DNA from: Cenarchaeum sp.
GTDB taxonomy: Archaea; Thermoproteota; Nitrososphaeria; Nitrososphaerales; Nitrosopumilaceae
Direction: 5' to 3'
Length of the DNA stretch: 64,000 nucleotides
Assembly: GCA_965212015.1 (NCBI GenBank)
Contig: OZ243037.1
Span: 1,248,001-1,312,000 of the forward strand
Shown: one piece after another, positions 2,643 to 35,404 of the stretch
How positions within the stretch are numbered: the stretch's first letter is position 1
How the letters are laid out: each line of letters begins with the position of its first letter
The notes under the pieces: model-generated
Database searches by the model: none
What the model saw: the letters and a program-made list of their open reading frames with translations, nothing else
What the model was told of the DNA's origin: nothing
Program-made: the position numbers and the translations under genes

Positions 2643-3575
2643 ATGAACCATAAAGTCGTCGCGCTGCTAGCGGCCCTTGCAGTGGCCGGATTGTCTTCTG
2701 CGTCTGCAGAGACTGTCAGGGAATCCGCCGAGGGCGGAATGGACATTGAGATCACGTATCCGGACACCGCCATCATCGGGCGCGATTTTCCGGTTTCATT
2801 TCTGATTCACAACAACGGGTGGGAGGACAAGGAACGGGTGGTCATCCGGTTCGATCCGGACGATGCAATAGTGCCGGTCACAAAAAACAGCACGGGGATA
2901 GAAAAGATTGCAGCCGGCGGCTCTTACGGCGATACCGTGGACTTTGCGGTGCTGCCAGGCGCCTCGGCGGGAATTCATTTTCTCAACCTGGACTATTCGC
3001 AGGTGCTGCTTGAGAACAACGAGACGCCGAGGCCAGAGACGCGCACCAACATTGCAATAGCCCTGGACATAAGGGAGCAGGCCAGAGTCTCCATCCACGC
3101 CGCGGCACCGGAATCAATCTTTGCCCGGGCCGAGTTCCCGTTTACCGTAGAGGTGCTGTCAGAAGACGTGGATCTGAGAGACGTGCACATAGAGATCATT
3201 GCGCCCAAGGACATTGAGTTTAGGGGCGAGACGCTGCACGTCTTTTCGTCCGTCAAGAGGGGCGAGACGCTGGGCATCACGTCTAGAATCATCACGCCGG
3301 CAGAAGAGGTGCAGGCCGAATACAGCGTTCCGTTTCAGATTCTGGTAAGCTATGACGACGCAGGAAAAAGGCAGGAGGACTCGCAGACAGTTTCGCTGAC
3401 CCTGAGGCCGCGGTCCTTTATGGAGCTGACCACGGACGGCGGAATCTGGATAGGCGGGATTTTCATTGCGCCGTACATAAGCCTGGGCACCATAATCGGG
3501 ATTCCCGCAGGCGCGGTTTTTTCATTGCTGATCAAAAAAAGAAGGCAAAAACCCCGGGAGGCAGGCAGGACATGA
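2643..3575 (+). CDS. secreted, C-terminally membrane-anchored Ig-like/S-layer-domain (COG1361-like) protein
   Basis: Signal peptide, two beta-rich repeat domains, C-terminal TM helix followed by KKRR. Confidence 0.65.
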   Translation: MNHKVVALLAALAVAGLSSASAETVRESAEGGMDIEITYPDTAIIGRDFPVSFLIHNNGWEDKERVVIRFDPDDAIVPVTKNSTGIEKIAAGGSYGDTVDFAVLPGASAGIHFLNLDYSQVLLENNETPRPETRTNIAIALDIREQARVSIHAAAPESIFARAEFPFTVEVLSEDVDLRDVHIEIIAPKDIEFRGETLHVFSSVKRGETLGITSRIITPAEEVQAEYSVPFQILVSYDDAGKRQEDSQTVSLTLRPRSFMELTTDGGIWIGGIFIAPYISLGTIIGIPAGAVFSLLIKKRRQKPREAGRT

Positions 3576-5038
3576 TGCCGGCGCCGGCTGCGTTTTTTGC
3601 AGCACTTTTGTGCGCGGTGCTGATTCCGGGTGCGGCAGGGCACGGGATCGGCTACGAGGTGCTCCCGCCGATGCCGCTAGGCGACAGGATGGTGGAGCTG
3701 GAGATAGTCTCCTCGCAGTACGAGAATCTCGGCAATCCCGACAGGGAGATTCAGTTTTCGCTGCGTGACGCAGGTGATGAGTCCCCCGTCGAAGACGTGA
3801 CATACCGCGTAGTGGCCACCAAGGCCGGCGGTTTTCTCTTTGATCAGACGCTTGCGGCGGCAGACGGGGTGTTTGTCTTTGTTTTGGAGGGCGGCGAGTC
3901 CGACGAGGTTTCGCTTGAAAAAAGGGGGCAGGGAGGATGGTTCGAGTCAATAGCAGGCCTGAAAAAGGAGGTCATTTACGCCAGCGGCGCGGCATTTCAG
4001 ACGGGCGGGCTGTACAAGTTCAAGGTGGACATATCATCCGCAGCCGGGCCCCCCATAGCGTACGACGTGGGACTGTCCGTTCCCGACACGGTGTCATTTG
4101 ACATACGGGATCCAAACTTTGGAGTGCAGAGGATAAACCTCACCTCGTACTATGACGAGGTCTCGGATTTTGCATACGATCCGGATTCCAGGGGCGTCTC
4201 GTTTTCAATGCCCTTTGAGTGGGACATTGGCAACATAAACGAGACATCCGTGGTTCACGAGGAGGTGGCGTTCCCAAAGACCTTCGGCGACGTGCTGGTG
4301 GCCCGGTATGACACGCACGTAAACGGGATCAAGATGCCCGAGAGGGTTACCGTAATAGACGATTTTTCAGAGGGGCGCAGGACCGTGCACATGGTGCTCA
4401 ACCAAAACGATCTTCGGGGCATCCTGGACGGACAGGAGCGGGACGTCATGGATTTTTTGCTGGTGCCAAAGGACGGCTCCCCGTTTATCCTGGTCACCGA
4501 GAACGGGCAGTTTAGAATCACAGTCAGCCGGGATCCGGGAGGCTCCGAATCCGGCACCGAGACTTTTCTTTTTGACATTACCGACGTATTCCTAAAGAAC
4601 ACCCCGGTTGCAGTCAGCTATGAGGTGTTCCTGGAGCACGACGGGAGGGTGGTTGCCGGCACGGGGGGAACCAGTGATGATTCGGGCAGGCACAACGAGT
4701 TTGGCGCGCCTGTCGGCGCAGACTCTGGCGTGATGGTCCTCCGGTTTGAGAATCTGGACGGCAATGCACTGGCCCGGGCCGAATTGCCGATAGTCGTCGG
4801 GTCGGATCACGTCACAATCCCGGACTGGTTTCGGGACAATGCCGGATGGTGGTCAGGCGGCAGGATTAGCGACTCGGATTTCATTGCATCGATGGAATAC
4901 GTGACGGGAATGCGCATAACCGGGACTGCAATACCTGACTGGTTTCGGGACAGTGCGGCGGGGTGGTCGGACATGGAAATCTCCGGCGGGGACTTTGCAG
5001 CCGGAGTACGCCGCCTCATGGCAGAGGGGACATTATGA
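3572..5038 (+). CDS. secreted thaumarchaeal surface protein with C-terminal IPDW...AGWW repeats
   Basis: Signal peptide ending AAG|HG; two C-terminal IPDWFRD(N/S)A repeats typical of Nitrosopumilus surface proteins. Confidence 0.7.
   Translation: MMPAPAAFFAALLCAVLIPGAAGHGIGYEVLPPMPLGDRMVELEIVSSQYENLGNPDREIQFSLRDAGDESPVEDVTYRVVATKAGGFLFDQTLAAADGVFVFVLEGGESDEVSLEKRGQGGWFESIAGLKKEVIYASGAAFQTGGLYKFKVDISSAAGPPIAYDVGLSVPDTVSFDIRDPNFGVQRINLTSYYDEVSDFAYDPDSRGVSFSMPFEWDIGNINETSVVHEEVAFPKTFGDVLVARYDTHVNGIKMPERVTVIDDFSEGRRTVHMVLNQNDLRGILDGQERDVMDFLLVPKDGSPFILVTENGQFRITVSRDPGGSESGTETFLFDITDVFLKNTPVAVSYEVFLEHDGRVVAGTGGTSDDSGRHNEFGAPVGADSGVMVLRFENLDGNALARAELPIVVGSDHVTIPDWFRDNAGWWSGGRISDSDFIASMEYVTGMRITGTAIPDWFRDSAAGWSDMEISGGDFAAGVRRLMAEGTL
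4815..4956 (+). repeat. intragenic direct repeat (two copies of about 28 bp) encoding the IPDWFRD repeats
   Basis: caatcccggactggtttcgggacaatgc (4815) versus caatacctgactggtttcgggacagtgc (4929). Confidence 0.7.
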
Positions 5039-5677
5039 CTTGGAGTGTCTGACTGTGGCTAGTATCGCAATTGCAATTCCGGCGGCACCCATCGCCATTC
5101 CGGCATAGCTAATGCCTGCAAGCTGGCCTGCCTGCGCCTTGATGTCTTTTTTAATCGAGCCTATCTCGCCTACGAGTGCGGCATGCCCGTCGATGATCTG
5201 CTTTATGGTCTGATCCTCGGGTTCCGGAAACTCAATGTCCGATCTCTCGCTTACCTTGGGCGGGTGCATCGAGATGCTAACCGGTGTGCCGCGGATCTCG
5301 CCGAGCAAGTTGACCTGATAGAATCCGGATGCCGTGGGGTTTACAAACGCGTGGTACTTGCCGGCTATATTGTGATCCTCGACTAGGGGCAGCGTCGTCT
5401 TTTCGTCCTCAAACACCAGCTGCATCTTTAGGTCCCCGGCGAGTCCGGCTATGCCGTTTTTGAATTCCTGCGACATGGCACACCCCGCGTGGTCTCCGGT
5501 ACACGGATCAAGCTGCCCGATTCTAAGCTCGATTCCGTTGGTCTCGCGGCTGATGACAGGCTCGTTCATCCAGCCTATCTCCAGCCTATAGTCTTCGACA
5601 GAGTCCACCGTATGGGCGTAAACCCCCGGAACCATTGCAGGGGCCACAAAAAGAACCACGACGTACCAAAGATCCAA
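5033..5677 (-). CDS. secreted, membrane-anchored hypothetical protein
   Basis: Signal peptide ...VYA|HTVD, Ig-like body (IGWMNEP, GKYHAFVNPT), coiled coil and C-terminal TM. Start uncertain (TTG 5677). Confidence 0.65.
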   Translation of the reverse strand: MDLWYVVVLFVAPAMVPGVYAHTVDSVEDYRLEIGWMNEPVISRETNGIELRIGQLDPCTGDHAGCAMSQEFKNGIAGLAGDLKMQLVFEDEKTTLPLVEDHNIAGKYHAFVNPTASGFYQVNLLGEIRGTPVSISMHPPKVSERSDIEFPEPEDQTIKQIIDGHAALVGEIGSIKKDIKAQAGQLAGISYAGMAMGAAGIAIAILATVRHSKS

Positions 5678-5726
5678 CACGCGTGGTCTTTTTTCTAGCG
5701 TTAAAAACGTTAAACCGGCTCTAGTT

Positions 5727-7172
5727 TCAGGCATCCGCATACATCGAGACCTCCCAGGCAGTAGGGGTCTGGGCAAACGCGACGTATTCCTTGTATTTCA
5801 GCTCGGAGTACTTTTCCAAAAAGTCCGCAGTAAAGACGTCAATTAGAAACGCATTGTCGCCTTTCAGGGCGTCTAGCGCGCCCTTGAGGGACAGGGGCAG
5901 CGAGCCGATCTTGTATTCGCGTTTTTTTTCTGCGGAAAGCTTGTAGACGTTCTCCTCGACCGGATCGCCGGGATCCAGCTTTCTTTTGATGCCGTCAAGG
6001 CCCGCAAGCAGCAATGCTGCCTCGAGCAGATAGATGTTTGCGGTGGGATCCGGAACCCGGTACTCTATTCGCTTGCTTTTTTCCTGGTTCCTGTTGTACA
6101 TGGGAATCCTGACTGCCGCCGACCTGTTTCCTATGCCCCAGCACATGTTTACTGGCGCCTCGAATCCCGGCACCAGCCTCTTGTAGGAGTTTGTGGTGGG
6201 ATTCGTGATTGCGCACAGCGCCTGGGCGTGCTCAAGTATTCCGCCCACATAGTACCTGCCAGTCTGGCTGAGCTGGGCCACGTCGTCGTCGGCGTCGTAC
6301 ATTACGTTGGTCTTGTCCCTCCATATGCTCTGGTGCGTGTGCATTGCAGAGGCGTTGTCGCCATAGATGGGCTTTGGCATAAAGGTCGCAACCTTGTTGT
6401 TGCGCTTGGCCTTTACCCTCACCATGTTTTTGACGGCAATGACATTGTCGGCCATTTTTGTCATCTCGTCGTACACCAGGTTGATCTCGCACTGCCCCGA
6501 GGTGGCCACCTCGTGGTGCTCTGCCTCGATTTTTATCTTGAAATACTGATAGAGATCATCGCAGACGTCCTTTCTGAACGTCTCAAGCGTGTCTTTGGGC
6601 TGCGACGGATAATAGCCCTCCTTGATGTCTATGGCCGTGCTGATGTTTCCCTTTGCCCACGGGGATTCCTTTGACTCTATCGAGTATCCAGAGCCGCCGT
6701 ACGAGTGCGTTGCGGCATAAGGCGACGGATACACGTTGATCGTGTCAAAGACAAAAAACTCTATCTCCGGGCCCCAGCTGGTGTGTGTCAGGCCGGTCTC
6801 GGTCAGTTTCCCGCCGGCCTTTTTTGCAATCCCCCTCGAATCCCGGTTGTACCGCGATTGGACCGACGTGTTGCCCTCGTACAAATCACAGATCAGCCTG
6901 GCGTTTTTGCGGCGTCCGTTGTCATAATCCGGGGGCATAATCCTAAACGTGTCCGGATCCGGCTTTAGTAACATGTCGGACTTGTTTACCGACTTGAAGC
7001 CCACAATGGAGCTTGCGTCCAGCTTTTCGAGGCCGTGCCTAAAGCTGTTCTCGTCTATGGCATAGCTTGGCATCCCCATCCGCCTCAGCTCCCCGAAAAT
7101 GTCCACAAACCAGAAATCAAGGAACGTGATATTGTCATCCCGGATCGTCTTTAGGACAGCCTGTACATCCAA
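5727..7172 (-). CDS. glnA: glutamine synthetase type I, second paralogue
   Basis: DASSIVGF, GPEIEFF, HHEVATSGQCEI, TFMPKP, MHTHQS, NSYKRLVPGFEAP, NRSAAVRIP, RIEYRVPD. Confidence 0.93.
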   Translation of the reverse strand: MDVQAVLKTIRDDNITFLDFWFVDIFGELRRMGMPSYAIDENSFRHGLEKLDASSIVGFKSVNKSDMLLKPDPDTFRIMPPDYDNGRRKNARLICDLYEGNTSVQSRYNRDSRGIAKKAGGKLTETGLTHTSWGPEIEFFVFDTINVYPSPYAATHSYGGSGYSIESKESPWAKGNISTAIDIKEGYYPSQPKDTLETFRKDVCDDLYQYFKIKIEAEHHEVATSGQCEINLVYDEMTKMADNVIAVKNMVRVKAKRNNKVATFMPKPIYGDNASAMHTHQSIWRDKTNVMYDADDDVAQLSQTGRYYVGGILEHAQALCAITNPTTNSYKRLVPGFEAPVNMCWGIGNRSAAVRIPMYNRNQEKSKRIEYRVPDPTANIYLLEAALLLAGLDGIKRKLDPGDPVEENVYKLSAEKKREYKIGSLPLSLKGALDALKGDNAFLIDVFTADFLEKYSELKYKEYVAFAQTPTAWEVSMYADA

Positions 7173-7246
7173 CGTACATATCTCTGCGTCCGGTTTACTA
7201 ATGCTGTCAAGTAAGATAGTTTTAGCTTTCTTGTAAATAGTGCAAA

Positions 7247-8611
7247 TTAGTCGCGCTTTAGGCTGCGCGCCCCGGCGTATTTGGTGCCAAGCTCGCCGGC
7301 AAACATGAATTCGTCCTCAAATGCCGGCTTTAGGTCGTCCAGCCAGATTGCATCCTCGTCGTATTTGGCATAAAACGGCTTGTTGACCCATTCCGGATTC
7401 CTTCCCTGCAAGAACCGCAGGGACATGACTTTTTGCCCGTTTATCACGGGGGTGCCGTCCACTAGCACCTTGCCGGGAGTCGCAGACATGCTAGGCCCCC
7501 GGACCGTCCTGCCCAGGCCGCTTACCTGCTTGTAGGCGTCCCTGAATATCTCATAGGCCCTCACCAGCGGGACGCCAAAGTAATGCTGCGCCCCCGTGTC
7601 GCGAACCACGAACATATAGTACGGAACGCACCCGAGCTGGACCTGATCCCTCCACATCTTGCTCCATACTGCTGCGTCGTCGTTGATGTGCGCCAGCAGC
7701 GGGGACTGGGTCCTGATCTGGGCGCCGGTGGCGTGAATCTTTTTGATTGCCAGCTTTGCCGCATCCGTCTTTAGCTCCACGTGGTGGTTAAAGTGTGACA
7801 TTATGGCCAGATGAATCCCGCTTTTGGTGATTTCCCGGAATGTTTCCAGCGTCTGCTCTGCGTCGCCGTCAGAGCTGACCTTGTACGGCCAGTACGCCAG
7901 CATTTTGGTGCCGATTCTTATGGTTTTGAGGTTTGGCAGGTCCGCCCCTAGCAGCGTGTCCACGTATCCCCTGAACATCTTGGCGTTCATGATCATCGGA
8001 TCGCCTCCTGTAAAGAGCACGTCGGAGATCTCTGGGTGCTCCCGGACATACTGCACCAGCTGTTCGCCCTCGCGCATTGCAAACTTCATGTCATCCATCC
8101 CGACAAACTGCGGCCATCTGAAGCAAAAGCTGCAGTATGCGTGGCACGTCTGGCTCTGGCTGGGGAAAAACAGGCACGTCTCTTTGTATTTGTGCTGCAT
8201 TCCGTACAGCTTTGTGCCGTCCCGGAGCACGGGCACGTTGAGCTCAAGCTGCCCCGCCGGGTGCGGGTTTAATTGCAGCCTTATCTCGTTGGCCGCCTGC
8301 GCAATCTCTTTTTTGTCGGCATTGTTTTTCAGCTTTTCTGCCATGGCCTCAAAGTGCTGCGTCTTGAGCATGTTTTTTTGCGGAAACGTCAGCACGTACA
8401 TGGGATCGTTGGGAATGTTATCCCAGTCGATTAGCTGCTCTACCACATAGTTGTTGGCCTTGAAGGGCAGCACGTTTCCGACGACTTCCATTTCAAACTT
8501 GGTCTGCTCGGGGAGCTGCTGGATCTGCGGCAGCTGCCTAAAGTTGGCCAGCGTGTATGATTTTAGCGAGGGGGACTCTGTCTCGCTCCAGACAGATTCT
8601 TGCAGCGCCAT
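7247..8611 (-). CDS. KamA-family radical SAM/PLP 2,3-aminomutase (lysine 2,3-aminomutase-like)
   Basis: CxxxCxxC (CHAYCSFCFR), DVLFTGGDP, IRIGTK, HFNH, QSPLL...IND, PYYMF, PLP-lysine region SATPGKV. Confidence 0.88.
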   Translation of the reverse strand: MALQESVWSETESPSLKSYTLANFRQLPQIQQLPEQTKFEMEVVGNVLPFKANNYVVEQLIDWDNIPNDPMYVLTFPQKNMLKTQHFEAMAEKLKNNADKKEIAQAANEIRLQLNPHPAGQLELNVPVLRDGTKLYGMQHKYKETCLFFPSQSQTCHAYCSFCFRWPQFVGMDDMKFAMREGEQLVQYVREHPEISDVLFTGGDPMIMNAKMFRGYVDTLLGADLPNLKTIRIGTKMLAYWPYKVSSDGDAEQTLETFREITKSGIHLAIMSHFNHHVELKTDAAKLAIKKIHATGAQIRTQSPLLAHINDDAAVWSKMWRDQVQLGCVPYYMFVVRDTGAQHYFGVPLVRAYEIFRDAYKQVSGLGRTVRGPSMSATPGKVLVDGTPVINGQKVMSLRFLQGRNPEWVNKPFYAKYDEDAIWLDDLKPAFEDEFMFAGELGTKYAGARSLKRD

Positions 8612-8760
8612 TAGTTGGATTGCCGCCCACTATTGTTAAAGGTTGGTATAAAACCAGAGTCAGGCGCGAAAACTAGGCGCGGCAGGCGTGTAAAAAACCC
8701 CGCTACAGGCGGCTTTCCCAAAATTTTTTAATCGATGAATTGGTGCACAAGTGACTGATA

Positions 8761-10491
8761 ATGGCCGAAGATGAGATAATAAACACCGTCTCAGGCCAGG
8801 TGGGCCAGTTTGAGACGGTCTTTGAGCTTTTGGCCTCGTCGCAGTCCCTGCAGATCGCCTTTGCCATACTGATCGCAGGCATAGTTGCAATCGTGCTGGC
8901 CTACAGGATGCTCTCGAGGTGGACCGCATCGCGCAAGCTGAGCTATATCAGGCCCCATGTTTCAAGGTTCGTAAGGGTCGCCATACTTCCGTTTTTTGCA
9001 ATAGCGCTAATCACCTCCACTAACGCATACATACAGACATTCGAGCTGTTCGATGACGCGTCAGGCGGCTCGGCAAACGAGACCTTTGCCAAGATGCTAA
9101 ACACGATGAACGTGCTGGTAATAGGGTATACGGTGGCGCAGCTTGTCCCCATAATCATGACAAAGCGCGAAAAGACCAGCCTGGAGAGAGATGACTATGA
9201 GATCTGGAAGTCGATGAGGGGGTTTCCGGACGACGAGGGAGATTTCTTTCACAAGCTGTTCAGGTGGATCCCGCCGCAGCATGTTCCGGAGGACATGACA
9301 GACGACGAGTTCCAGAAATACATGGGCACCGACGAGGGCAGGGACTATCTCGAGGAGTTTCGCACCACAAAGGGGATTCCGATCGGAAGCTACGAGAATC
9401 TAGTCGACGAGCCGTTTGAGAAATGGAAGAAAGAAGAGCGCAGGAAATACACGGCGTACTTTGAGAGCTGCGTCTCTGGCGACAACGAGTCGGGAAGAAA
9501 GCTAAAGACGGGACAAAAGACAGAAGAGGTATACCCCATAGATACGTGGAGGGAGGAAAAACGCGTCAGCGGCTACGGTGCAATCGTTGCCGGCGCAAGA
9601 CCGTCCGGATACGCCACAAAAAAGCGAAAGGACGTTCCAAAATCGGTAATGCAGATTATTCCAATCGGCGTCTTTGCGGCAGTGGTTCTCGGGGTGATAA
9701 GCTGGTGGGGCATAGACCTGATAGTCCTTGCAACTGCAACCGGCGGATTTGCAATCGGCATCGGCCTTGCGCTGCAAGAGACGATGCAGAACTGGTTTGC
9801 ATACATTATGATAAGAAAGGACAAGATAGTAGCCGAGGGCGACAGGATCGCCCTAGAGAGCGGCTACAACGGATATGTACACAAGATCACGGCACGGGTG
9901 ACGTACATCCGCCACGGCATGAACGAGTCGTACGCGATAATACCCACGAGGAACCTCATCAACGCCCAGATTATCAACTTTTCAAAGGACTCAAAGCTGG
10001 TGCCGGCAGTAGTCGATGTGGGCGTGTCCTACCTGAACGATCCCAAGCAGGTGGCCTCCATCCTAGTCAAGATCGGAAAGCGGGCAATGTCCGAGATTAC
10101 AGACGAGAAGGGAAGGCACCTGATCAGGCAAAAGAGATGCCCGTATCTGGCAGAGAACAAGGCAAGCTGCGGGTGCGATTCCGGGCTGCACATAGACATC
10201 AGCCAGCCGGTGGTGCGGTTCAACAAGTTCAACGACTCGGCGCTTGACTTTTCGGTGTGGGTCTATGTCAGGGACTATGGCGCACAGTTCAAGGCAAAGA
10301 CGGACATGAGGATGATCATGTACGAGGAGTTCAAAAGGTATGATGTCAGGATTCCATGGCCCATCAGAACCGTCTATCAGGGCGACGAAAAGAGGGAATC
10401 CGAGGAGATTGGAAGGCTTGACGGGGATCGCAACAAGGCAATAGACGAGTTCGGAGTCGGGGACATCTCCAAGGGCGGATCGGAGGAATAG
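8761..10491 (+). CDS. small-conductance mechanosensitive channel (MscS family) with insertions
   Basis: TM segments, GIGLALQETMQNWFA, GDRI, GVSY, PVVRFNKFNDSALDF, IPWP C-terminal motif. Confidence 0.88.
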   Translation: MAEDEIINTVSGQVGQFETVFELLASSQSLQIAFAILIAGIVAIVLAYRMLSRWTASRKLSYIRPHVSRFVRVAILPFFAIALITSTNAYIQTFELFDDASGGSANETFAKMLNTMNVLVIGYTVAQLVPIIMTKREKTSLERDDYEIWKSMRGFPDDEGDFFHKLFRWIPPQHVPEDMTDDEFQKYMGTDEGRDYLEEFRTTKGIPIGSYENLVDEPFEKWKKEERRKYTAYFESCVSGDNESGRKLKTGQKTEEVYPIDTWREEKRVSGYGAIVAGARPSGYATKKRKDVPKSVMQIIPIGVFAAVVLGVISWWGIDLIVLATATGGFAIGIGLALQETMQNWFAYIMIRKDKIVAEGDRIALESGYNGYVHKITARVTYIRHGMNESYAIIPTRNLINAQIINFSKDSKLVPAVVDVGVSYLNDPKQVASILVKIGKRAMSEITDEKGRHLIRQKRCPYLAENKASCGCDSGLHIDISQPVVRFNKFNDSALDFSVWVYVRDYGAQFKAKTDMRMIMYEEFKRYDVRIPWPIRTVYQGDEKRESEEIGRLDGDRNKAIDEFGVGDISKGGSEE

Positions 10492-21364: not shown

Positions 21365-22825
21365 TTGCCGTATAAAGTCAGCCATGGAAAAGCCCTCGAA
21401 TTAAAATATTCAGCAGACGAGGTGTTTTCAAAGATTCAGCACGAGGGAATAAAGTTCATAGATTTGCAGTTTACCGGCCTGACGGGAAGGTTTCACCATA
21501 CGACGATTTCCGCCATTACGTTTACCCCAGAGCAGATGCGTGACGGCCTTCCAAAGCTAGACGGCTCCTCCATAGTGGGCTTTACCAGCATTGACGACTC
21601 TGATCTGGTCCTAAAGCCGGATCCCAACACCTTTGCGATAATCCCGTGGTACACGGAGAACAAGACTGCAAGGCTGCTTTGCGACGTGTACTGGGGCGAG
21701 GATAGGGGCAGGCTGCAAAGGGATCCGCGCGGAATCGCGCAGGGGGCAGAGGAATCCGTCACCGCCGCCGGCTTTGATCACAGCGTGTGGGGGCCAGAAG
21801 TCGAGTTTTTCGTATTTGACAAGATCCACTGGGACGTCTTGACGCCATACAAGGGGCAGTCGTATTCCATCGAGTCAGAGGAGGCGCCGTGGAGCCAGGA
21901 GGGTTCGGGCTATCCCATGGGACTACAGGAGGGATACTATCCAAGCACGCCGTCAGACACGCTCACCCCGTTTAGAAACGAGTGCGTCAATATTCTCAAC
22001 GAGAGCTTTGGGATCCTGTGCGACAACCACCACCACGAGGTGGCCACTGCGGGGCAGTGTGAAATAGACATACGGTACGACTATCTGACAAACGCCGCAG
22101 ACTCTACCCAGTCGTACAAGTTTGTAATCCGGAACGTTGCAAAAAAATTCGGAAAGATTGCAACAATGATGCCAAAGCCCATCTCTATGGATTCGGGCTC
22201 GGGAATGCACACCAACGTAAGCCTGTGGAAGAACAAAAAGAACATCTTTTTTGACGCCACAGAAGAGATGGAGCTAAGCCAGGTCGGAAGATATTTCTGC
22301 GGCGGAATTTTAAACCACGCAAAGGCGCTGTGCGCAATCTCAAACCCCACCACGAACTCTTATCACAGGCTGGTTCCCGGATACGAGGCGCCAGTTTATG
22401 TCGCGTGGAGCGGCAGCAACCGTTCTGCAATCGTGAGGGTTCCCAGGCATTTCAAGGGCGAGGGCTATTCGTTTCTGAAACGGCTAGAGTTCCGCGCCCC
22501 CGACCCGTCATCCAACCCGTACCTGGTCTTCTCGTCGGTGCTCGCCGCCGGGCTAGACGGCGTCAAAAAGAAGATGGATCCCGGCGAGCAGGTACAGGAG
22601 GATATTTTCAAGATGACAAAGGCCGAGAGGATCAAGAGGGGAATCGACATCCTGCCTGCCAACCTAGGCGAGGCGCTCGACGAGCTTGAAAGCGACAGAA
22701 AGTTCCTACAGCCCATATTTCCCAACGACGTAATCAACCGGGTAATAGAGCTGGAAAGAAGGGATCAGAGGGAGATTTCCATCAGGCCGCACCCGCACGA
22801 GTTTTATCTGTACTTTGACGTATAG
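21365..22825 (+). CDS. glnA: glutamine synthetase type I (probable housekeeping copy)
   Basis: DGSSIVGF, GPEVEFF, HHEVATAGQCEI, MPKP, GSGMH, LVPGYEAP, NRSA, LEFRAPD. Confidence 0.95.
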   Translation: MPYKVSHGKALELKYSADEVFSKIQHEGIKFIDLQFTGLTGRFHHTTISAITFTPEQMRDGLPKLDGSSIVGFTSIDDSDLVLKPDPNTFAIIPWYTENKTARLLCDVYWGEDRGRLQRDPRGIAQGAEESVTAAGFDHSVWGPEVEFFVFDKIHWDVLTPYKGQSYSIESEEAPWSQEGSGYPMGLQEGYYPSTPSDTLTPFRNECVNILNESFGILCDNHHHEVATAGQCEIDIRYDYLTNAADSTQSYKFVIRNVAKKFGKIATMMPKPISMDSGSGMHTNVSLWKNKKNIFFDATEEMELSQVGRYFCGGILNHAKALCAISNPTTNSYHRLVPGYEAPVYVAWSGSNRSAIVRVPRHFKGEGYSFLKRLEFRAPDPSSNPYLVFSSVLAAGLDGVKKKMDPGEQVQEDIFKMTKAERIKRGIDILPANLGEALDELESDRKFLQPIFPNDVINRVIELERRDQREISIRPHPHEFYLYFDV

Positions 22826-29682: not shown

Positions 29683-30447
29683 TCACTTTCTGGTGCCGTG
29701 GATCGCTTTTACTATTTCGGCGAGCTTTGCAAGTTTCTGATCCCCCTCCAAGAGAGTCCCAATCACGATGGCGTCCGCCCCGGCATCAGATATCTGTCTG
29801 GCAGTCTCAGCATCCCTGATTCCGCCGCCGACAATCAGGAATCCGTCAAAGACGCCTCGGATCGTCTTGATCATCTCGGGCCTGACGCTGGATTTGGCGC
29901 CAGAGCCGGCCTCCAGATAAACAAACCGCATACCCAAAAACTGCGCCGCCAGCGCATATGCTGCGGCAATCTTTGGCTTGTCAAAGGGAATTCCCCGGGC
30001 GGAGCCCACAAACCATGCCGATGTTCCCTCGCCGATGACCAGGTATGCCGTGGGCAGGGGCTCTAGGCCGAATTTCAGTACGCTTGGCGCGCCCAGCGCC
30101 TGCGCCTGCGTGATAAAATACGGGTTTTCAGAGTTCATCAGGGAGCTAAAAAGGATCGCGTCGGCCTCAGGAACGACGCCAGTCACGTTTCCGGGGAAAA
30201 GAATTACCGGAATCTTTACGGATTTTTTGATGTTTCCAACTACTGCGGACATTTCCATCTGGTCGGTGGCCGACGATCCCCCGACTAGTATTGCAGAGGC
30301 GCCCATCTCCTCTACCCGCCTTGCGAGGCCCTCCGAGCTTGCCATATCGGACACCTCAGAGTCGATAAGGACAAAGAGCAGGGTCTTTTTTCTTTTTAAT
30401 TCGGACTTTAGATGGTTCTCGGTGTCGTTTTTAGGCATAGCACACAT
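29683..30447 (-). CDS. geranylgeranylglyceryl phosphate synthase
   Basis: VLIDS, ILVGGS, ILFPG, YLEAGSGA, VGGGIR. Confidence 0.93.
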   Translation of the reverse strand: MCAMPKNDTENHLKSELKRKKTLLFVLIDSEVSDMASSEGLARRVEEMGASAILVGGSSATDQMEMSAVVGNIKKSVKIPVILFPGNVTGVVPEADAILFSSLMNSENPYFITQAQALGAPSVLKFGLEPLPTAYLVIGEGTSAWFVGSARGIPFDKPKIAAAYALAAQFLGMRFVYLEAGSGAKSSVRPEMIKTIRGVFDGFLIVGGGIRDAETARQISDAGADAIVIGTLLEGDQKLAKLAEIVKAIHGTRK

Positions 30448-30503
30448 TCGGCGGAGGCTCTTTAAAGTTTAAGTGGAGTACCGTTATACTGTTTTGTATA
30501 GCT

Positions 30504-30866
30504 ATGGCGGAGCATAAAGGATCTAATTTCAATAATATTATACAAAAAATTATAGAAAAATCGTTGTTTACAGAGAGACAAATTGAAATTATTTTAGATC
30601 GTAGAAACATTTCAGAGGCGGATTTTAGGATAAGCAGGGGGGCATATTACAGGCAAGTAGGCCAATCTAGGAACAAACTGGCCAGATTCTACTATACCGT
30701 GGCCCTTTTGCGGGGTTTGGGCGTACTTTTGCCCGATGATATTGATGTGATATCAAATCTGGCAGAAAAGATTTCCGTGATAAAAGACAGTGATGTTTTG
30801 GCCGGCCAGGAAGACGAGATTGTAGACGTCATTGACAGGGTGGTTCGGCAGGCATGCAATATGTGA
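30504..30866 (+). CDS. hypothetical protein, probable HTH DNA-binding
   Basis: FTERQIEII...ISRGAYYRQ resembles a Tfx/sigma-like HTH; AT-rich gene. Confidence 0.65.
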   Translation: MAEHKGSNFNNIIQKIIEKSLFTERQIEIILDRRNISEADFRISRGAYYRQVGQSRNKLARFYYTVALLRGLGVLLPDDIDVISNLAEKISVIKDSDVLAGQEDEIVDVIDRVVRQACNM

Positions 30867-30988
30867 TTTGTGATGATCTTGTTGCGTGCAGGCAGTCTCC
30901 AAGGCGTGATTATTGGTGATTCAAATGTTAGTCTAAATGTGAAATTATATTGTTCTATCACAATAAATCACGGTGATTTCATGTATGT

Positions 30989-31567
30989 GTGATGTTGGTA
31001 GAGATTCCCGATATGGATGTAATTTTAAGCTGGGTTGTGGCGTTTCTGGTGGGAGTAATCGGCCTGTCCCTATACTACAAGCTAAAACCACGCCTGAGCA
31101 TCGGACGAAAAGGTGATGAGGGGGCGAGTCTGGAACGCCTAGAGTACTATGAAAAACAGCTGATTGATATGAAAATACGCCTAGATGCACTCGATATGGT
31201 GTCCGAGCCGGAACCGGCAGGCAGTACCGGGAATACCGCACAGGCACCAGCCAAAAACACTGCAAGGCCGGAGTTTGAGGCGGAGGCTGCCAGACCAGAG
31301 CGCAGACGGCGCGAAAGCACGCCTAGTTATGATCACGCAAACATCACAGACTATGTGTTACGCCTAATCACAGACAAGCCCATGACATCACGTGACATAC
31401 AAGTCACAGTAGGCAGAACGAGGGAGCACATCTCCAGACTAATGAAAAAGCTTTTTGAAGACGGCCTTGTAGAAAGAAACACCGCCGCAAAACCATACAC
31501 ATACTCCATCACAGAAAAGGGCAGGACGGGCCTGGGTATAATCAAGCCGGTGCCGGTTGCCGTATGA
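30989..31567 (+). CDS. membrane-anchored winged-helix DNA-binding protein
   Basis: N-terminal TM (ILSWVVAFLVGVIGLSLYY), coiled coil, linker, then MarR-like wHTH (TSRDIQ..VGRTREHISRLMKKL...GLVER...PYTYSIT.KG). Confidence 0.8.
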   Translation: MMLVEIPDMDVILSWVVAFLVGVIGLSLYYKLKPRLSIGRKGDEGASLERLEYYEKQLIDMKIRLDALDMVSEPEPAGSTGNTAQAPAKNTARPEFEAEAARPERRRRESTPSYDHANITDYVLRLITDKPMTSRDIQVTVGRTREHISRLMKKLFEDGLVERNTAAKPYTYSITEKGRTGLGIIKPVPVAV

Positions 31568-31680
31568 TTGGGATCGGGCAGGGGGCTTTCTTTCAAAGTG
31601 TAGATTTTTTATGATAATTTATAATTCTTTTATTTTGATAAATTACATATATTAATATATTACAATATTATAATGCCGGC

Positions 31681-31842
31681 ATGGAAGAGGCGCCTCAGGA
31701 AATATTAGTCAAGATATCATCCACGGGCACAATCTCGCTTCCAAAACTATACCGAAAATACATGGATCTGCAAAAGGGCGACTATGTCAGGGTGGTTTTG
31801 AACAGTGACGGCCTGTCAGTCAAAAAGGCGACGATCACTTAG
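31681..31842 (+). CDS. AbrB/MazE/SpoVT-family DNA-binding protein (53 aa, not in the ORF track)
   Basis: MEEAPQEILVKISSTGTISLPKLYRKYMDLQKGDYVRVVLNSDGLSVKKATIT*, with the AbrB pattern KIxxxGxIxLPKxxR...L..GD.V. Confidence 0.85.
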   Translation: MEEAPQEILVKISSTGTISLPKLYRKYMDLQKGDYVRVVLNSDGLSVKKATIT

Positions 31843-32234
31843 CGTATTGTGGGCTGTTTTTGGGCCAGTTTAATGATCTGATAGGTCCATTCCCGGCCTG
31901 TTTTTGAGCGCTGCACCCTGCCTTTTTGGGCAAATCTGGCCAGATATGTGGATATGATGCTCAGTTTGATCGGCTCGTTGTATTCGTCCTCGTATTTCTC
32001 CAGGACGCCGGTGGATGTGAACCGGCCTACCGGAAACTGTTTGCCGACGACATGCCAGATTTTGGAGCCCACGGAATCCAGATTTACGGCCTTTTGGCCC
32101 TCCTCGATATTCATCAGATCCATCATTTCAAAGATTTTGAGGACTTTTTCCCTTGTGACATTGCCCTCCAGTTTGATGTCATATTTGGCCCCCTCAGAGT
32201 CCTCCATGTCTATCCGGATGCGCTTCTTGGTCAT
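31839..32234 (-). CDS. hypothetical winged-helix protein divergent from cdc6
   Basis: C-terminal FTS...Y...ISTYLARF..KG.V.R...GREWTY wHTH-like pattern; start at ATG 32234. Confidence 0.75.
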   Translation of the reverse strand: MTKKRIRIDMEDSEGAKYDIKLEGNVTREKVLKIFEMMDLMNIEEGQKAVNLDSVGSKIWHVVGKQFPVGRFTSTGVLEKYEDEYNEPIKLSIISTYLARFAQKGRVQRSKTGREWTYQIIKLAQKQPTIR

Positions 32235-32249
32235 TTGGATCAGTCTAAG

Positions 32250-32700
32250 AATTGCCTTAACAATTGAACAGATCCACGAAACTTTGTTAACCAAATAATT
32301 TGTTAATATTGACTGCCTGAGCCACGCCTGACGGGGTTTTCCCCGTTAACATATGCCCTAAAATCATGGCGGTTTTGGGCCGTTTTTCACGCCTAGAGTG
32401 GAAAAAGGGGGGTCGGATGCCATTCTTAACACTGTTAATCACAGATTTCACGCCTAGAGTGGAAAAAGGGGGGTCAAAAAGGGGTTTTTCCACCACACCT
32501 TAACTCTGGGTTAACTCCCTGTTAACTGCAACGACCCACACACCAGTATTTCCACTCTTTGTTTTTTTGATTTTTTTTACAGAGATTCTCTCACATATCA
32601 CTATCAAACCATCATCATACAACCATACATTCCAATCCTATAGGAAATGAAGGTGTGTGGGTACAGAACTGATCGGTGTCAATGATCTTGATCCTTGGTG
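32250..32700. other. probable chromosomal replication origin (oriC)
   Basis: Intergenic region upstream of cdc6 with direct ORBs, an inverted ORB-like box at 32533-32560 (reverse complement AGAGTGGAAATACTGGTGTGTGGGTC), a T-rich tract at 32558-32578, and a further box TAGGAAATGAAGGTGTGTGGG at 32641-32661. Confidence 0.8.
32385..32475 (+). repeat. two identical 30-bp direct repeats (ORB-like) TTTCACGCCTAGAGTGGAAAAAGGGGGGTC
   Basis: Copies at 32385-32414 and 32446-32475; the GTGGAAA core plus G-string is typical of archaeal origin recognition boxes. Confidence 0.85.
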
Positions 32701-32758
32701 TGAAAAATGTCTATGGGATCCATTGAAGTGTCAAGCCAAGATCAGAGATGATCCCGAT

Positions 32759-33976
32759 ATGAGTACCACACTGCAAGACCCGGTTGAAAAGATACTTGAT
32801 GCGGCCATAGCCGGCGACTCGCTGATCAAAAACCGGGACATTCTACACTTTACCTTTATACCGGCCGTCATACACCACAGGGACTCTGAGCAGGAAAGGG
32901 TGACACAGTCGCTGCTACCCATCCTAAAACAGTCCCGCCCCTCCAACCTGCTGGTGTACGGCAAGCCCGGGACCGGCAAGACCCTGGTGGTGAAAAAAAT
33001 TCTCTCCAAAATACAGCAGAGGGTGGAAAAGTCAAACTTTCCAATCAGGCTAATCTATGCCAACTCCAAGGAGGAGACTACCATGTACGGCCTGCTGGTG
33101 AGTTTCGGCAGGCAGCTGGGACTCTCCGAAAAGGAGCTGCCGTCAACCGGCCTTGCAATATCTGCAGTCTTTAAGAAAATCCTTGCCGTAATCAATGGCG
33201 GAAAAATCAATGCGATATTTGTCATCGACGAGATTGATCACCTTGCGCACCTGAGCTCCAAATCACACAACGACATTCTCTATACGCTGACTCGCGCCAA
33301 CGAGAGAATCGAGAGCGGGGGATCCTTTACCATAGTGGGCATATCCAACGATCTCACATTCAAGGAGCGGCTTGATCCGAGGGTCATCAGTACCCTGGGG
33401 GAGGAGGAGATTGTCTTTACAAACTATACCGTCGAGCAGATCAAAAAAATCCTTCAAAACAGGATTGGCGAGGCGTTTGCCCCGGACTCTGTCACCGAAC
33501 CGGCCCTGAACCTGTGTGCTGCCATGGCCGGCGGGGAGCACGGTGACGCCAGAAGGGCCATAGATCTCCTCCGGGTGGCAGGCGAGATTGCAGAAAGGGA
33601 GCAGGCAGGCCAAATCACCGAGGCCCACATCAGAGACGCGTCACAAAAAATAGAGGAGAACAAAGAGATTACGGCCCTGAGATCCTATCCGCTTCACGAA
33701 AAACTAGTCATCCTGTCCATAATAAAGGCGGCCGACTCCTCGACCGGGCAGATTTACGCGGCATACAAGGACCTGACAAAGACGCTCCGCCAAAAGGAGC
33801 TCACCCAGAGGAGGATTACCCAGATGCTAAGCGAGATAGAAATGTCCGGAATCATCACGGGCCGCATAATACACCAGGGAATCCACGGAAGGACCAAAAA
33901 ATTCAAGCTTACAGTCTCTGCCGAAACGGTAAAGGCCACGTTCAAAAACGATTTGGTTCTAGAGGATATCCTCTAG
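32759..33976 (+). CDS. cdc6: Orc1/Cdc6 replication initiator
   Basis: YGKPGTGKT Walker A, VIDEID Walker B, LDPRVIS, GDARRAIDLLR, C-terminal winged helix. Confidence 0.96.
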   Translation: MSTTLQDPVEKILDAAIAGDSLIKNRDILHFTFIPAVIHHRDSEQERVTQSLLPILKQSRPSNLLVYGKPGTGKTLVVKKILSKIQQRVEKSNFPIRLIYANSKEETTMYGLLVSFGRQLGLSEKELPSTGLAISAVFKKILAVINGGKINAIFVIDEIDHLAHLSSKSHNDILYTLTRANERIESGGSFTIVGISNDLTFKERLDPRVISTLGEEEIVFTNYTVEQIKKILQNRIGEAFAPDSVTEPALNLCAAMAGGEHGDARRAIDLLRVAGEIAEREQAGQITEAHIRDASQKIEENKEITALRSYPLHEKLVILSIIKAADSSTGQIYAAYKDLTKTLRQKELTQRRITQMLSEIEMSGIITGRIIHQGIHGRTKKFKLTVSAETVKATFKNDLVLEDIL

Positions 33977-35404
33977 TCAGTCCTTAAAGTCTTTTAAAAA
34001 GACCTTGAGGCTGTTCAGGTTTACTATTACGGCGAATCCCGGGGTGGGAACCTGCCCCACGCTCACCTGAAACGGCGTCTGTCTCTGCCAGGCGCCAGAG
34101 TTGACTAGCAGTATGTTGCGGTACATGTCCAGCTCTGTAATGTGCACGTGGCCCACGTGGAAAATGTCGGGGATTTCGTCTATTACCATCACGTCCTCCA
34201 GTTCCGGGGCTATCGGGGTCTGGCTTCCAAAGATGGGGCTCAGGTGCCTTGCCTTTAGCAGGTGCCGCATCACGTCCACCGGCTTGGCGTAGCTCAGGCC
34301 GGGCGTGGTCTTTACAATGTCGTCTATGCTTTGCCCGTGAAACACGGTCACCTTTACGCCGTTCAGGGAGATCCGCGCGGGATTGCCGATCATGACAAAG
34401 TTTTCGCGCTCCCACAGGCCGGGGCAGTGTTTCTTGGGAATCGCCGGCTGCGGCAGGGCCCTTCTTCCCGGATCGTGGTTTCCCGGAATGACAAAGACCC
34501 GGATGTGGTCGGGTATTCCCAGCAGGATGTCGTGCGCCTTTTGGAGCTGCTCCTCTATGGTCTGGCAGACCAGCTCCCTGTCCTGATCCTTGTAAATTCC
34601 CACCCCGTCGACTAGGTCGCCGCCTATTATGATGAATGCAATCTTTCTTGCTATCGGATCTGGGCTGGACAGCCAGGAGACAAACGCCGCAAACTCTTCT
34701 TCCATAAAGTATTTGCTGCCTATGTGCAGATCCGACAAAAACACGGCGTGGGCCTCAGACTCGGATCTGTTGGGCCGGTGATCCGGAATGTCCGGAACGA
34801 TCAGCTCCTTTGTTACAAAGCCGCCGTTTTTCCCCACCGCAATCTTTGCCATGACGAACTGGTCGTTGAGCAGCGAGTCGGCGACCTTGCGCAGATCCCT
34901 GTCAAAGACGGCCACCTCGACTGAGCCTGACGCATCGTCCAGGGTCAGCCTCACAACGTCCTTGCCCGAGTTTTTTTCATAAATCAGCCCCCAAATGTAG
35001 ATGTCCTTGTTGAACTTTGTGCCCTTGATGGACGCTATGGATTTTATCATTTTTGATTCCGGGCGGTCGGCCATGATGCCCTTTAATTTTGAGAACCTGC
35101 TTGCAAACAGCGCGTTATACCCGTCTACCCCCTCGGCACTGGTAATCCCGCCGGTGGGATCCGAGAGCACCTCGTAATCCGCCCGGAGCTCAGCCTTGCT
35201 GATCCCGAGAAACTCCTCCAAATCCGTCTGGCCGATCAGATAGACCTTTTGCCTTGCCTTCTCCCTGACTATCTCTTTGATTATTCTTCCCAGCTGCGAC
35301 GCATCGACGCCCTCTAGAATCTTTAGCGCGTCTGGATGAATCTGAAACCCCCTGCTCAGTGCATAGTTCAAGGCCAGCGATATTTCCCTGTTCAATGTCA
35401 GCAA
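33977..35404 (-). CDS. polB: DNA polymerase II (PolD) small subunit DP1
   Basis: OB fold, SDLHIGS, GDLVDG, PGNHD, HG, RHLSP, GHVH calcineurin-like motifs. Confidence 0.95.
   Translation of the reverse strand: MLTLNREISLALNYALSRGFQIHPDALKILEGVDASQLGRIIKEIVREKARQKVYLIGQTDLEEFLGISKAELRADYEVLSDPTGGITSAEGVDGYNALFASRFSKLKGIMADRPESKMIKSIASIKGTKFNKDIYIWGLIYEKNSGKDVVRLTLDDASGSVEVAVFDRDLRKVADSLLNDQFVMAKIAVGKNGGFVTKELIVPDIPDHRPNRSESEAHAVFLSDLHIGSKYFMEEEFAAFVSWLSSPDPIARKIAFIIIGGDLVDGVGIYKDQDRELVCQTIEEQLQKAHDILLGIPDHIRVFVIPGNHDPGRRALPQPAIPKKHCPGLWERENFVMIGNPARISLNGVKVTVFHGQSIDDIVKTTPGLSYAKPVDVMRHLLKARHLSPIFGSQTPIAPELEDVMVIDEIPDIFHVGHVHITELDMYRNILLVNSGAWQRQTPFQVSVGQVPTPGFAVIVNLNSLKVFLKDFKD

Follow-up and report, generated by a model that had tools for sequence, protein, structure and literature searches.

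We analysed a window of 64,000 nucleotides from contig OZ243037.1 of Cenarchaeum sp., in which a gene for a KamA-like 2,3-aminomutase, of the kind that uses radical S-adenosylmethionine (SAM) and pyridoxal 5'-phosphate (PLP) chemistry, lies 74 bp upstream of an extra glutamine synthetase (GS) gene in the same orientation (GS2), and is separated by a spacer of 149 bp from a divergent gene for an MscS-family mechanosensitive channel (Table 1). An earlier note on this DNA had described this layout, together with another glnA at 21365, and the open reading frames (ORFs) were found exactly as described; the protein encoded by the other glnA, here called GS1, is 44% identical to GS2. The source genome is a single contig of 1.76 Mb that is 99.7% complete, and a profile scan of the whole genome detected a single KamA-family locus. 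The source names attached to near-identical proteins agree with a place in Nitrosopumilaceae.

Table 1. Features of the aminomutase locus, with the housekeeping glutamine synthetase gene for context
Feature	Position	Strand	Basis
GS2, type I glutamine synthetase paralogue, 481 aa	5727..7172	-	ORF and profile scans
Spacer between aminomutase and GS2 genes, with conserved element	7173..7246	-	Element kept upstream of GS2 across genera
KamA-like radical-SAM/PLP 2,3-aminomutase, 454 aa	7247..8611	-	ORF, motifs and fold
Shared divergent promoter region of aminomutase and MscS genes	8612..8760	.	Conserved boxes upstream of both genes
MscS-family mechanosensitive channel, 576 aa	8761..10491	+	Pfam; divergent from aminomutase gene
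GS1, housekeeping GS, context only, outside the module	21365..22825	+	TIGR00653, 533 bits

Metabolite data from the same archaeal family give this locus its interest. In one metabolomic study, beta-glutamic acid exceeds every other identified metabolite of Nitrosopumilus maritimus SCM1 in abundance and reaches 730 mM; it increases with depth in ocean particulate metabolomes, and phytoplankton cultures are without it (Heal et al. 2021, PMC8269262). The literature that we found, in the parts available, names no gene for beta-glutamate synthesis in Nitrosopumilus or other ammonia-oxidising archaea. We regard it as somewhat probable that the three genes make and manage beta-glutamate as a compatible solute, through a glutamate 2,3-aminomutase, release by MscS and possible amidation by GS2. 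The aminomutase is the best candidate for the beta-glutamate-making enzyme of marine ammonia-oxidising archaea.

The aminomutase is publicly annotated as lysine 2,3-aminomutase (LAM), and its scores fell below the cut-offs of all curated models of the family. It reached 124.5 bits against the KamA subfamily model TIGR00238 (121.8 in the genome scan; cut-off 199.2), 116 bits against AblA (TIGR03820; cut-off 525.4), which was its best score against a curated enzyme model, and 98 bits against EpmB (TIGR03821; cut-off 369). The models for arginine 2,3-aminomutase (94 bits; cut-off 600) and for the bacterial glutamate 2,3-aminomutase Eam (TIGR04368, 94.4 bits, or 89 in the genome scan; cut-off 650) gave the lowest scores, and the genome scan with TIGR04368 revealed no canonical Eam. 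A search of 1.84 billion representative proteins returned 318 relatives at E <= 1e-30, and none of the 40 nearest full-length relatives passed any curated cut-off, indicating a large, uncharacterised clade. In the Protein Atlas, the clusters found were all of the generic KamA or lysine aminomutase kind and came mostly from Pseudomonadota.

We then compared the active site with that of LAM. An alignment of 39 sequences (A1) was too diverse for the locus scan, and a subgroup of 10 sequences (A2) was used. Invariant residues in A2 included the CxxxCxxC cysteines (C156, C160 and C163), R165, G202-G203-D204-P205, R337, S376 and G380-K381. R165 lies two residues past the third cysteine, as does R134 in LAM, the residue that binds the alpha-carboxylate of the substrate. 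K381 lies within the invariant GK of the sequence RGPSMSATPGK, and was assigned as the PLP lysine by its position in this motif and not by hidden Markov model (HMM) alignment. Two residues of LAM, Asp293 and Asp330, bind the epsilon-ammonium group of lysine. R337 stands opposite Asp293 both in a phmmer single-sequence alignment and in the profile alignment to the LAM structure 2A5H (E 2.2e-35). The presence of an invariant arginine in place of the lysine-binding Asp293 points to an acidic substrate, since this residue should repel basic side chains.

The AlphaFold (AF2) model of the aminomutase (predicted local distance difference test 84.3, predicted template modelling score 0.86) gave LAM 2A5H as the top Foldseek match, with E 6.5e-16 over 436 columns, the next entry being at 3.3e-5. 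The protein thus shares with LAM its fold, the CxxxCxxC motif, the carboxylate-binding arginine and the PLP lysine motif. In the model, a strand (residues 371-377) is followed by a tight turn and then by G380-K381. By analogy with the strand, loop and Lys337 of LAM, we infer that S376 occupies the position of Asp330, an assignment made in this way because the HMM alignments end at LAM residue 322.

These features bear on what the enzyme acts on. The public annotation, and the fact that AblA gave the best curated score, would fit an enzyme that acts on lysine, arginine or another amino acid to give a non-osmotic product, such as a modified metabolite or a natural product. One relative (P0124) is fused to an amine N-monooxygenase-like domain and class I/II aminotransferases adjoin the gene in 4 of 36 bacterial loci, which would also agree with such a role. 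We nevertheless consider it quite improbable, because of the arginine at the Asp293 position, the wide margin by which every curated cut-off was missed, the link to a dedicated MscS gene, and the report of beta-glutamate as the abundant beta-amino acid in the family. The genes that should accompany beta-lysine chemistry are also lacking. The earlier note had seen neither AblB nor a ligase for elongation factor P nearby, and this extends to the whole genome: AblB (TIGR03827) gave no match in the 99.7%-complete sequence, where controls matched in six genomes (two over the cut-off), and the two genX matches found for EpmA were both under the cut-off. A beta-lysine role would therefore be left without its partner genes.

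The substitutions proposed here resemble those of other glutamate aminomutases. The bacterial Eam, a catabolic enzyme of anaerobes, reportedly has Lys and Asn at the sites of LAM Asp293 and Asp330. The enzyme described here would follow the same specificity logic, with Asp293 replaced by a basic residue (Arg337) and Asp330 by a small polar one (Ser376, the latter placed by analogy), and would perform the same reaction. However, it belongs to a different lineage (94 bits against a cut-off of 650), and is found in an aerobe and in an osmolyte context. A methanogen radical-SAM enzyme of the KamA type is also said to be a glutamate 2,3-aminomutase, proposed to make beta-glutamate as an osmolyte, with its function assigned from substrate-binding residues; it reportedly carries an N-terminal extension of ~160 residues. 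When compared by description only, the two proteins are alike in being archaeal, of the KamA type and proposed makers of an osmolyte, but the protein described here matches LAM over its whole length, leaving no room for such an extension. To our knowledge, no MscS or GS has been linked to the methanogen gene. If the methanogen enzyme were an orthologue, the aminomutase would be less novel and its assignment stronger. A 608-residue relative (P0224) was considered as an enzyme of the methanogen type and rejected, as it belongs to a bacterial group of ~530 residues. Compared with KamA/AblA (2A5H; TIGR03820), the shared features listed above are accompanied by Arg in place of Asp293, a score of 116 against 525 bits and the absence of AblB from the genome; ablA of methanogens is described as a salt-induced osmolyte gene in the part of a review that was available (PMC1224877).

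We next considered whether the three genes belong together. The channel protein matched PF00924 with 31.8 bits (cut-off 20.2) and PF21082 with 28.6 bits (cut-off 21). Of 24 other Nitrosopumilaceae genomes, 20 were found to have the aminomutase, as compared to none of 16 from different families of the order. Wider tallies were made over 121 family genomes, the source genome included, and since these genomes are related and not independent, we rely on asymmetries and not on statistics. The aminomutase was present in 89 of the 121, and this type of MscS in 76, of which 75 also carried the aminomutase; the sole exception (G076) has its MscS gene at a contig end. Fourteen genomes had the aminomutase and no detected MscS of this type.

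Gene order gave the same picture. Among 20 relatives with 1.5-kb flanks, MscS adjoins the aminomutase in 16 and GS2 in 13. Of 19 named thaumarchaeal loci, 18 have MscS beside the aminomutase and the other starts 130 bp before the aminomutase; all six loci labelled Nitrosopumilus sp. have the two genes side by side. GS2 is adjacent and whole in 10 of the 19, broken in one and missing in eight. The adjacency of these genes is not due to chance, and the arrangement is conserved across Nitrosopumilaceae. The tie between aminomutase and channel gene that enters into the proposal of the earlier note is thus seen across the family, and we propose the MscS protein as a candidate release valve for the osmolyte. 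In one locus of the family (L040), the two genes are not divergent, MscS being encoded upstream of the aminomutase in the same orientation. A search for N. maritimus genes by locus tag gave one hit, Nmar_1788, which is an unrelated membrane protein.

A similar pairing of osmolyte and channel genes may exist within the same family. N. maritimus reportedly carries an ectoine cluster with an associated mscS; such a linkage would also place osmolyte genes beside a channel gene, with a different solute and different enzymes. A search of the present genome for ectoine synthase gave no match, the control of that search being silent as well.

Upstream regions of the three genes contain conserved elements. 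A AACCTTTAACAA box at 8633-8644 (-), 22-33 nt upstream of the aminomutase ATG, was seen at the same distance from the aminomutase start in most of 19 relatives, and an A/T-rich box is present at 8720-8733 (+), 28-41 nt upstream of MscS. In the spacer between the aminomutase and GS2 genes, the element ATCTTACT-N8-TTAGTA at 7196-7217 lies 25-45 nt ahead of the GS2 start. A single copy is present in the window, where none is expected by chance, and variants of it are kept upstream of GS2 across genera. GS2 therefore probably has a regulated promoter of its own, and co-transcription with the aminomutase would not be needed. The element was also tried as a regulon motif and set aside, since a looser pattern gave one other, loosely spaced match in the genome.

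The distribution of GS2 is clearly asymmetric with respect to that of the aminomutase. With GS2 called where it was the best match at E < 1e-170, the gene was found in 65 of the 121 genomes, and 63 of these also carry the aminomutase, in line with the co-occurrence that the earlier note had wanted examined. In the two others (G076 and G104, assemblies that are 84-91% complete) the gene lies at a contig end. Conversely, 26 genomes from 11 genera have the aminomutase alone, 8 of these genera having other members that carry GS2, and 30 genomes have neither gene. Seven genomes with fragmentary GS matches (E 1e-22 to 1e-109) were scored as GS2-negative, three of which have the aminomutase; when G093, G107 and G108, which are flagged as unpublished, are left out, the numbers with both genes, GS2 only, aminomutase only and neither become 63, 2, 25 and 28. 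Remains of the gene were also found, namely a 23-residue C-terminal remnant directly after the aminomutase (L007), a copy in three frameshifted pieces (L041) and partial copies with internal stop codons (G077 and G099). GS2 has thus been lost alone many times, while the aminomutase was never clearly lost alone. Taken together, GS2 is a dependent, dispensable accessory, and the aminomutase and MscS form the core of the module.

What GS2 does was approached through its sequence. The protein matches Gln-synt_C (394 bits) and Gln-synt_N (80 bits), and passes the type I GS equivalog model TIGR00653 with 509 bits (cut-off 429), as does GS1; the two proteins score alike against solved GS structures. 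In a tree of 38 rows, the 11 GS1 rows (support 100) are nested with the GS from other families of Nitrososphaerales, and the 18 GS2 rows (support 100) stand apart as a clade of their own, with a stem of 0.71 changes per site. A third type of GS, ~50% identical to GS2 and sister to its clade, occurs in a few family genomes (G106:C70:21775-23241, G101:C38:846-2255, which has a TAG stop, and L135).

All 18 GS2 sequences retain every catalytic residue of the metal, ATP, ammonium and glutamate motifs. These are Asp50 and Ser53 (LDASS), Glu129, Glu131, Tyr179 (GYYPS), Glu212, Glu220, Asn264, His269 and His271 (DNASAMHxHQS), Arg321, Glu327, Arg339, Glu357 and Arg359, whose roles we take to be those of their counterparts in enterobacterial GS. 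With all canonical residues kept, GS2 should be an active ligase that uses ammonia. Fixed differences between GS2 and 17 other GS were found at eleven columns, in a comparison that omits two long-branch paralogues and one third-type GS, and we could tie none of them to beta-glutamate. Substitutions at the glutamate site (DNASAMH) were tried as a marker of specificity and discarded, as the G265A-type change is also seen in the GS of other families.

Conservation of the ammonium site argues against a further role for GS2, that of a gamma-glutamyl-amine ligase similar to PuuA or GlnA3, with a polyamine or a beta-amino acid as the partner of glutamate. Elsewhere, GS-like paralogues are said to have gamma-glutamyl roles, and GS2 gave a partial match of 249 bits to the gamma-glutamylputrescine synthetase model NF045547. 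However, this is far under the cut-off of 650 and about the same as the 244 bits of GS1, and Asp50, Ser53, Tyr179 and Glu212 are kept throughout the GS2 clade. The gamma-glutamylated beta-amino acid that the earlier note had offered as an alternative product is therefore disfavoured, and we hold it to be the least probable of the roles considered, with very little likelihood.

A more serious contender is that the aminomutase makes beta-glutamate as proposed, and GS2 is a second, differently regulated alpha-glutamine synthetase that might be tuned to other nitrogen or salt conditions and is adjacent through inheritance of the cluster. The score against the equivalog model, the intact catalytic, ammonium-site and glutamate-site motifs and the promoter-like element of its own are what such an enzyme would show, and its absence or decay in many aminomutase genomes fits an enzyme that can be dispensed with. 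In the available part of one report, a salt-induced glnA2 is described in Halobacillus halophilus (PMC2412884). On the other hand, an independent enzyme should sometimes outlive loss of the aminomutase, and GS2 stands without it in just two of 65 genomes, both at contig ends, as compared to 26 cases of the reverse. The long stem and the 11 clade-specific fixed changes suggest a functional shift. No glutamate synthase (GOGAT) was found in the genome, in a search whose control matched in 14 of 14 genomes, so that a second GS cannot serve a GS/GOGAT cycle and extra glutamine could not be turned into glutamate by this route. We consider this explanation a real possibility that falls somewhat short of probable.

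The reading that we favour, with beta-glutamate as the solute, can be set out in three steps. The KamA-like enzyme would move the amino group of L-glutamate from C2 to C3, yielding beta-glutamate in a single step. The divergent MscS channel would open on osmotic down-shock and release the solute. GS2 would then convert beta-glutamate, with ATP and ammonia, to its neutral amide, the solute beta-glutamine; this step is the weakest, and we would give it about one chance in three. The precedent comes from Methanohalophilus portucalensis, whose GS is reported to have unusually high activity on beta-glutamate, and in which high salt is required for beta-glutamine to accumulate (Roberts 2005, PMC1224877). 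The M. portucalensis enzyme (Robinson et al. 2001, cited in PMC1224877) and GS2 are both type I GS for which conversion of beta-glutamate to a neutral osmolyte is proposed. They differ in that the M. portucalensis activity is that of the cell's GS, whereas GS2 is a separate, dispensable paralogue linked to an aminomutase, for which activity on beta-glutamate is proposed from its genomic linkage and nested distribution.

The aminomutase was also found well outside the thaumarchaea. A scan of one genome per species gave 597 relatives, and the locus figures cover the best 80 of these, 19 of them thaumarchaeal (65-77% identity) and 61 from other lineages (57-66% identity). The 61 loci comprise two from Thermoplasmatota, the rest being bacterial, and many are labelled with marine taxa; labels include Balneolales, Marinifilaceae, Marinilabiliaceae, Saprospiraceae, Dehalococcoidia, Thiohalobacter, Thioalkalispiraceae, Persephonella and a Nitrospirae bin. 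We found no literature on beta-glutamate in Persephonella. At E <= 1e-8, neither the archaeal MscS type nor GS2 adjoined the gene in the 61 loci, the one exception being L105, with a GS of 38% identity. Stand-alone orthologues of this kind fit a one-enzyme pathway, because conversion of glutamate to beta-glutamate needs a single enzyme.

A Pfam scan of the 73 nearest neighbours from 36 of the non-thaumarchaeal loci showed that neighbours vary and that osmotic themes are scattered only: an MscS in L056, a cation ATPase and a Na+/H+ exchanger in L063, an inositol-1-phosphate synthase in L067, an asparagine synthase in L061, and the class I/II aminotransferases mentioned above in L072, L075, L078 and L101. 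In these last four loci, all from Ignavibacteriota or Bacteroidota, the aminotransferase lies directly beside the orthologue and may form a conserved pair with it. P0124, a metagenomic protein of 882 residues in the same KamA-like clade that is 47% identical to the aminomutase, keeps the ERD and RGPVMSATPGK signature, and its N-terminal domain matched TIGR04439 with 259 bits (cut-off 700). It is a single member on one 12-kb contig, and could reflect either an artefact of gene calling or a variant that makes a natural product.

In a FastTree phylogeny of 103 rows, the 39 Nitrosopumilaceae aminomutases formed one clade (support 97) nested among bacterial rows, which fits a single acquisition followed by losses. 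The tree left out L001, L002, L019 and L024 (the window's own, duplicate or partial copies), and filters for length and stop codons removed L051 and L106. A bolder version of our reading would be that this widespread, unassigned clade is the missing glutamate 2,3-aminomutase that supplies the large beta-glutamate pool of marine ammonia-oxidising archaea and of many bacteria. Nitrosopumilaceae would have acquired it once and built it into a three-gene module with a dedicated MscS and the first dedicated beta-glutamine synthetase, a GS paralogue confined to cells that make beta-glutamate; taken as a whole, we think this rather unlikely.

Several observations weigh against beta-glutamate as the product of the aminomutase, or against GS2 as a part of its pathway. 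The aminomutase lies under the curated cut-off for Eam and even under that of the KamA subfamily, and the equivalence of S376 to Asp330 comes from analogy and not from alignment. The fusion in P0124 hints at natural-product chemistry in at least one lineage, and orthologues are also found in taxa not known as marine (Zoogloeaceae, Burkholderiales and Terrimonas). The available part of an older review states that nuclear magnetic resonance excluded an aminomutase route in methanogens, and favours a glutaconyl-CoA route (PMC1224877). As for GS2, it keeps every canonical GS residue and nothing in its sequence points to beta-glutamate; it has a conserved promoter-like element of its own, and it is missing from the 26 aminomutase genomes noted above. 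Of the osmolyte route from glutamate to beta-glutamate and beta-glutamine that the earlier note had put forward, the first part is strengthened by the acidic-substrate signature at the Asp293 position and by the concentration of beta-glutamate in a member of the family, and the second gained no support from any GS2 substitution.

Few cells in the ocean are as abundant as those of marine ammonia-oxidising archaea, in which beta-glutamate is reportedly the leading small metabolite. A candidate gene for beta-glutamate synthesis would make testable its expression as a possible marker of salinity adaptation, the loss of the gene in some genera of Nitrosopumilaceae, and the idea that beta-glutamate is a currency of carbon and nitrogen released through the linked channel. 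If the assignment is true, it would correct a widespread annotation as lysine 2,3-aminomutase and extend the search to the many bacterial lineages that carry orthologues. If GS2 were a beta-glutamine synthetase, it would represent a new specialisation of a central enzyme.

We also noted some features of the neighbouring DNA and of the genome set. The ORF at 5033-5776 (-) encodes a predicted membrane or secreted protein that has no family match and is conserved just downstream of GS2; in relatives without GS2 its gene lies directly downstream of the aminomutase. Its listed start, which gives a 50-nt overlap with GS2, is probably too early, as relatives align from residue ~34-54. Two adjacent genes at 2643-5038 (+) encode proteins of 310 and 488 residues with signal-like N-termini and hydrophobic C-termini, which matched no Pfam or NCBIfam model and are probably surface proteins. 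The listed TTG start of GS1 is likewise probably too early: a TATA-like TTTAAGGTATAAAA box lies immediately upstream of it, relatives align from residue ~20, and an in-frame GTG is present at 21419. The region 30001-34000 has a G+C content of 0.47-0.49, as compared to ~0.53 in the rest of the window, and may be an island. Four genomes of the same genus and family (G002-G004 and G017) are listed with sizes of 3.2-4.3 Mb, roughly double that of the source genome (1.76 Mb), and have low contamination estimates.

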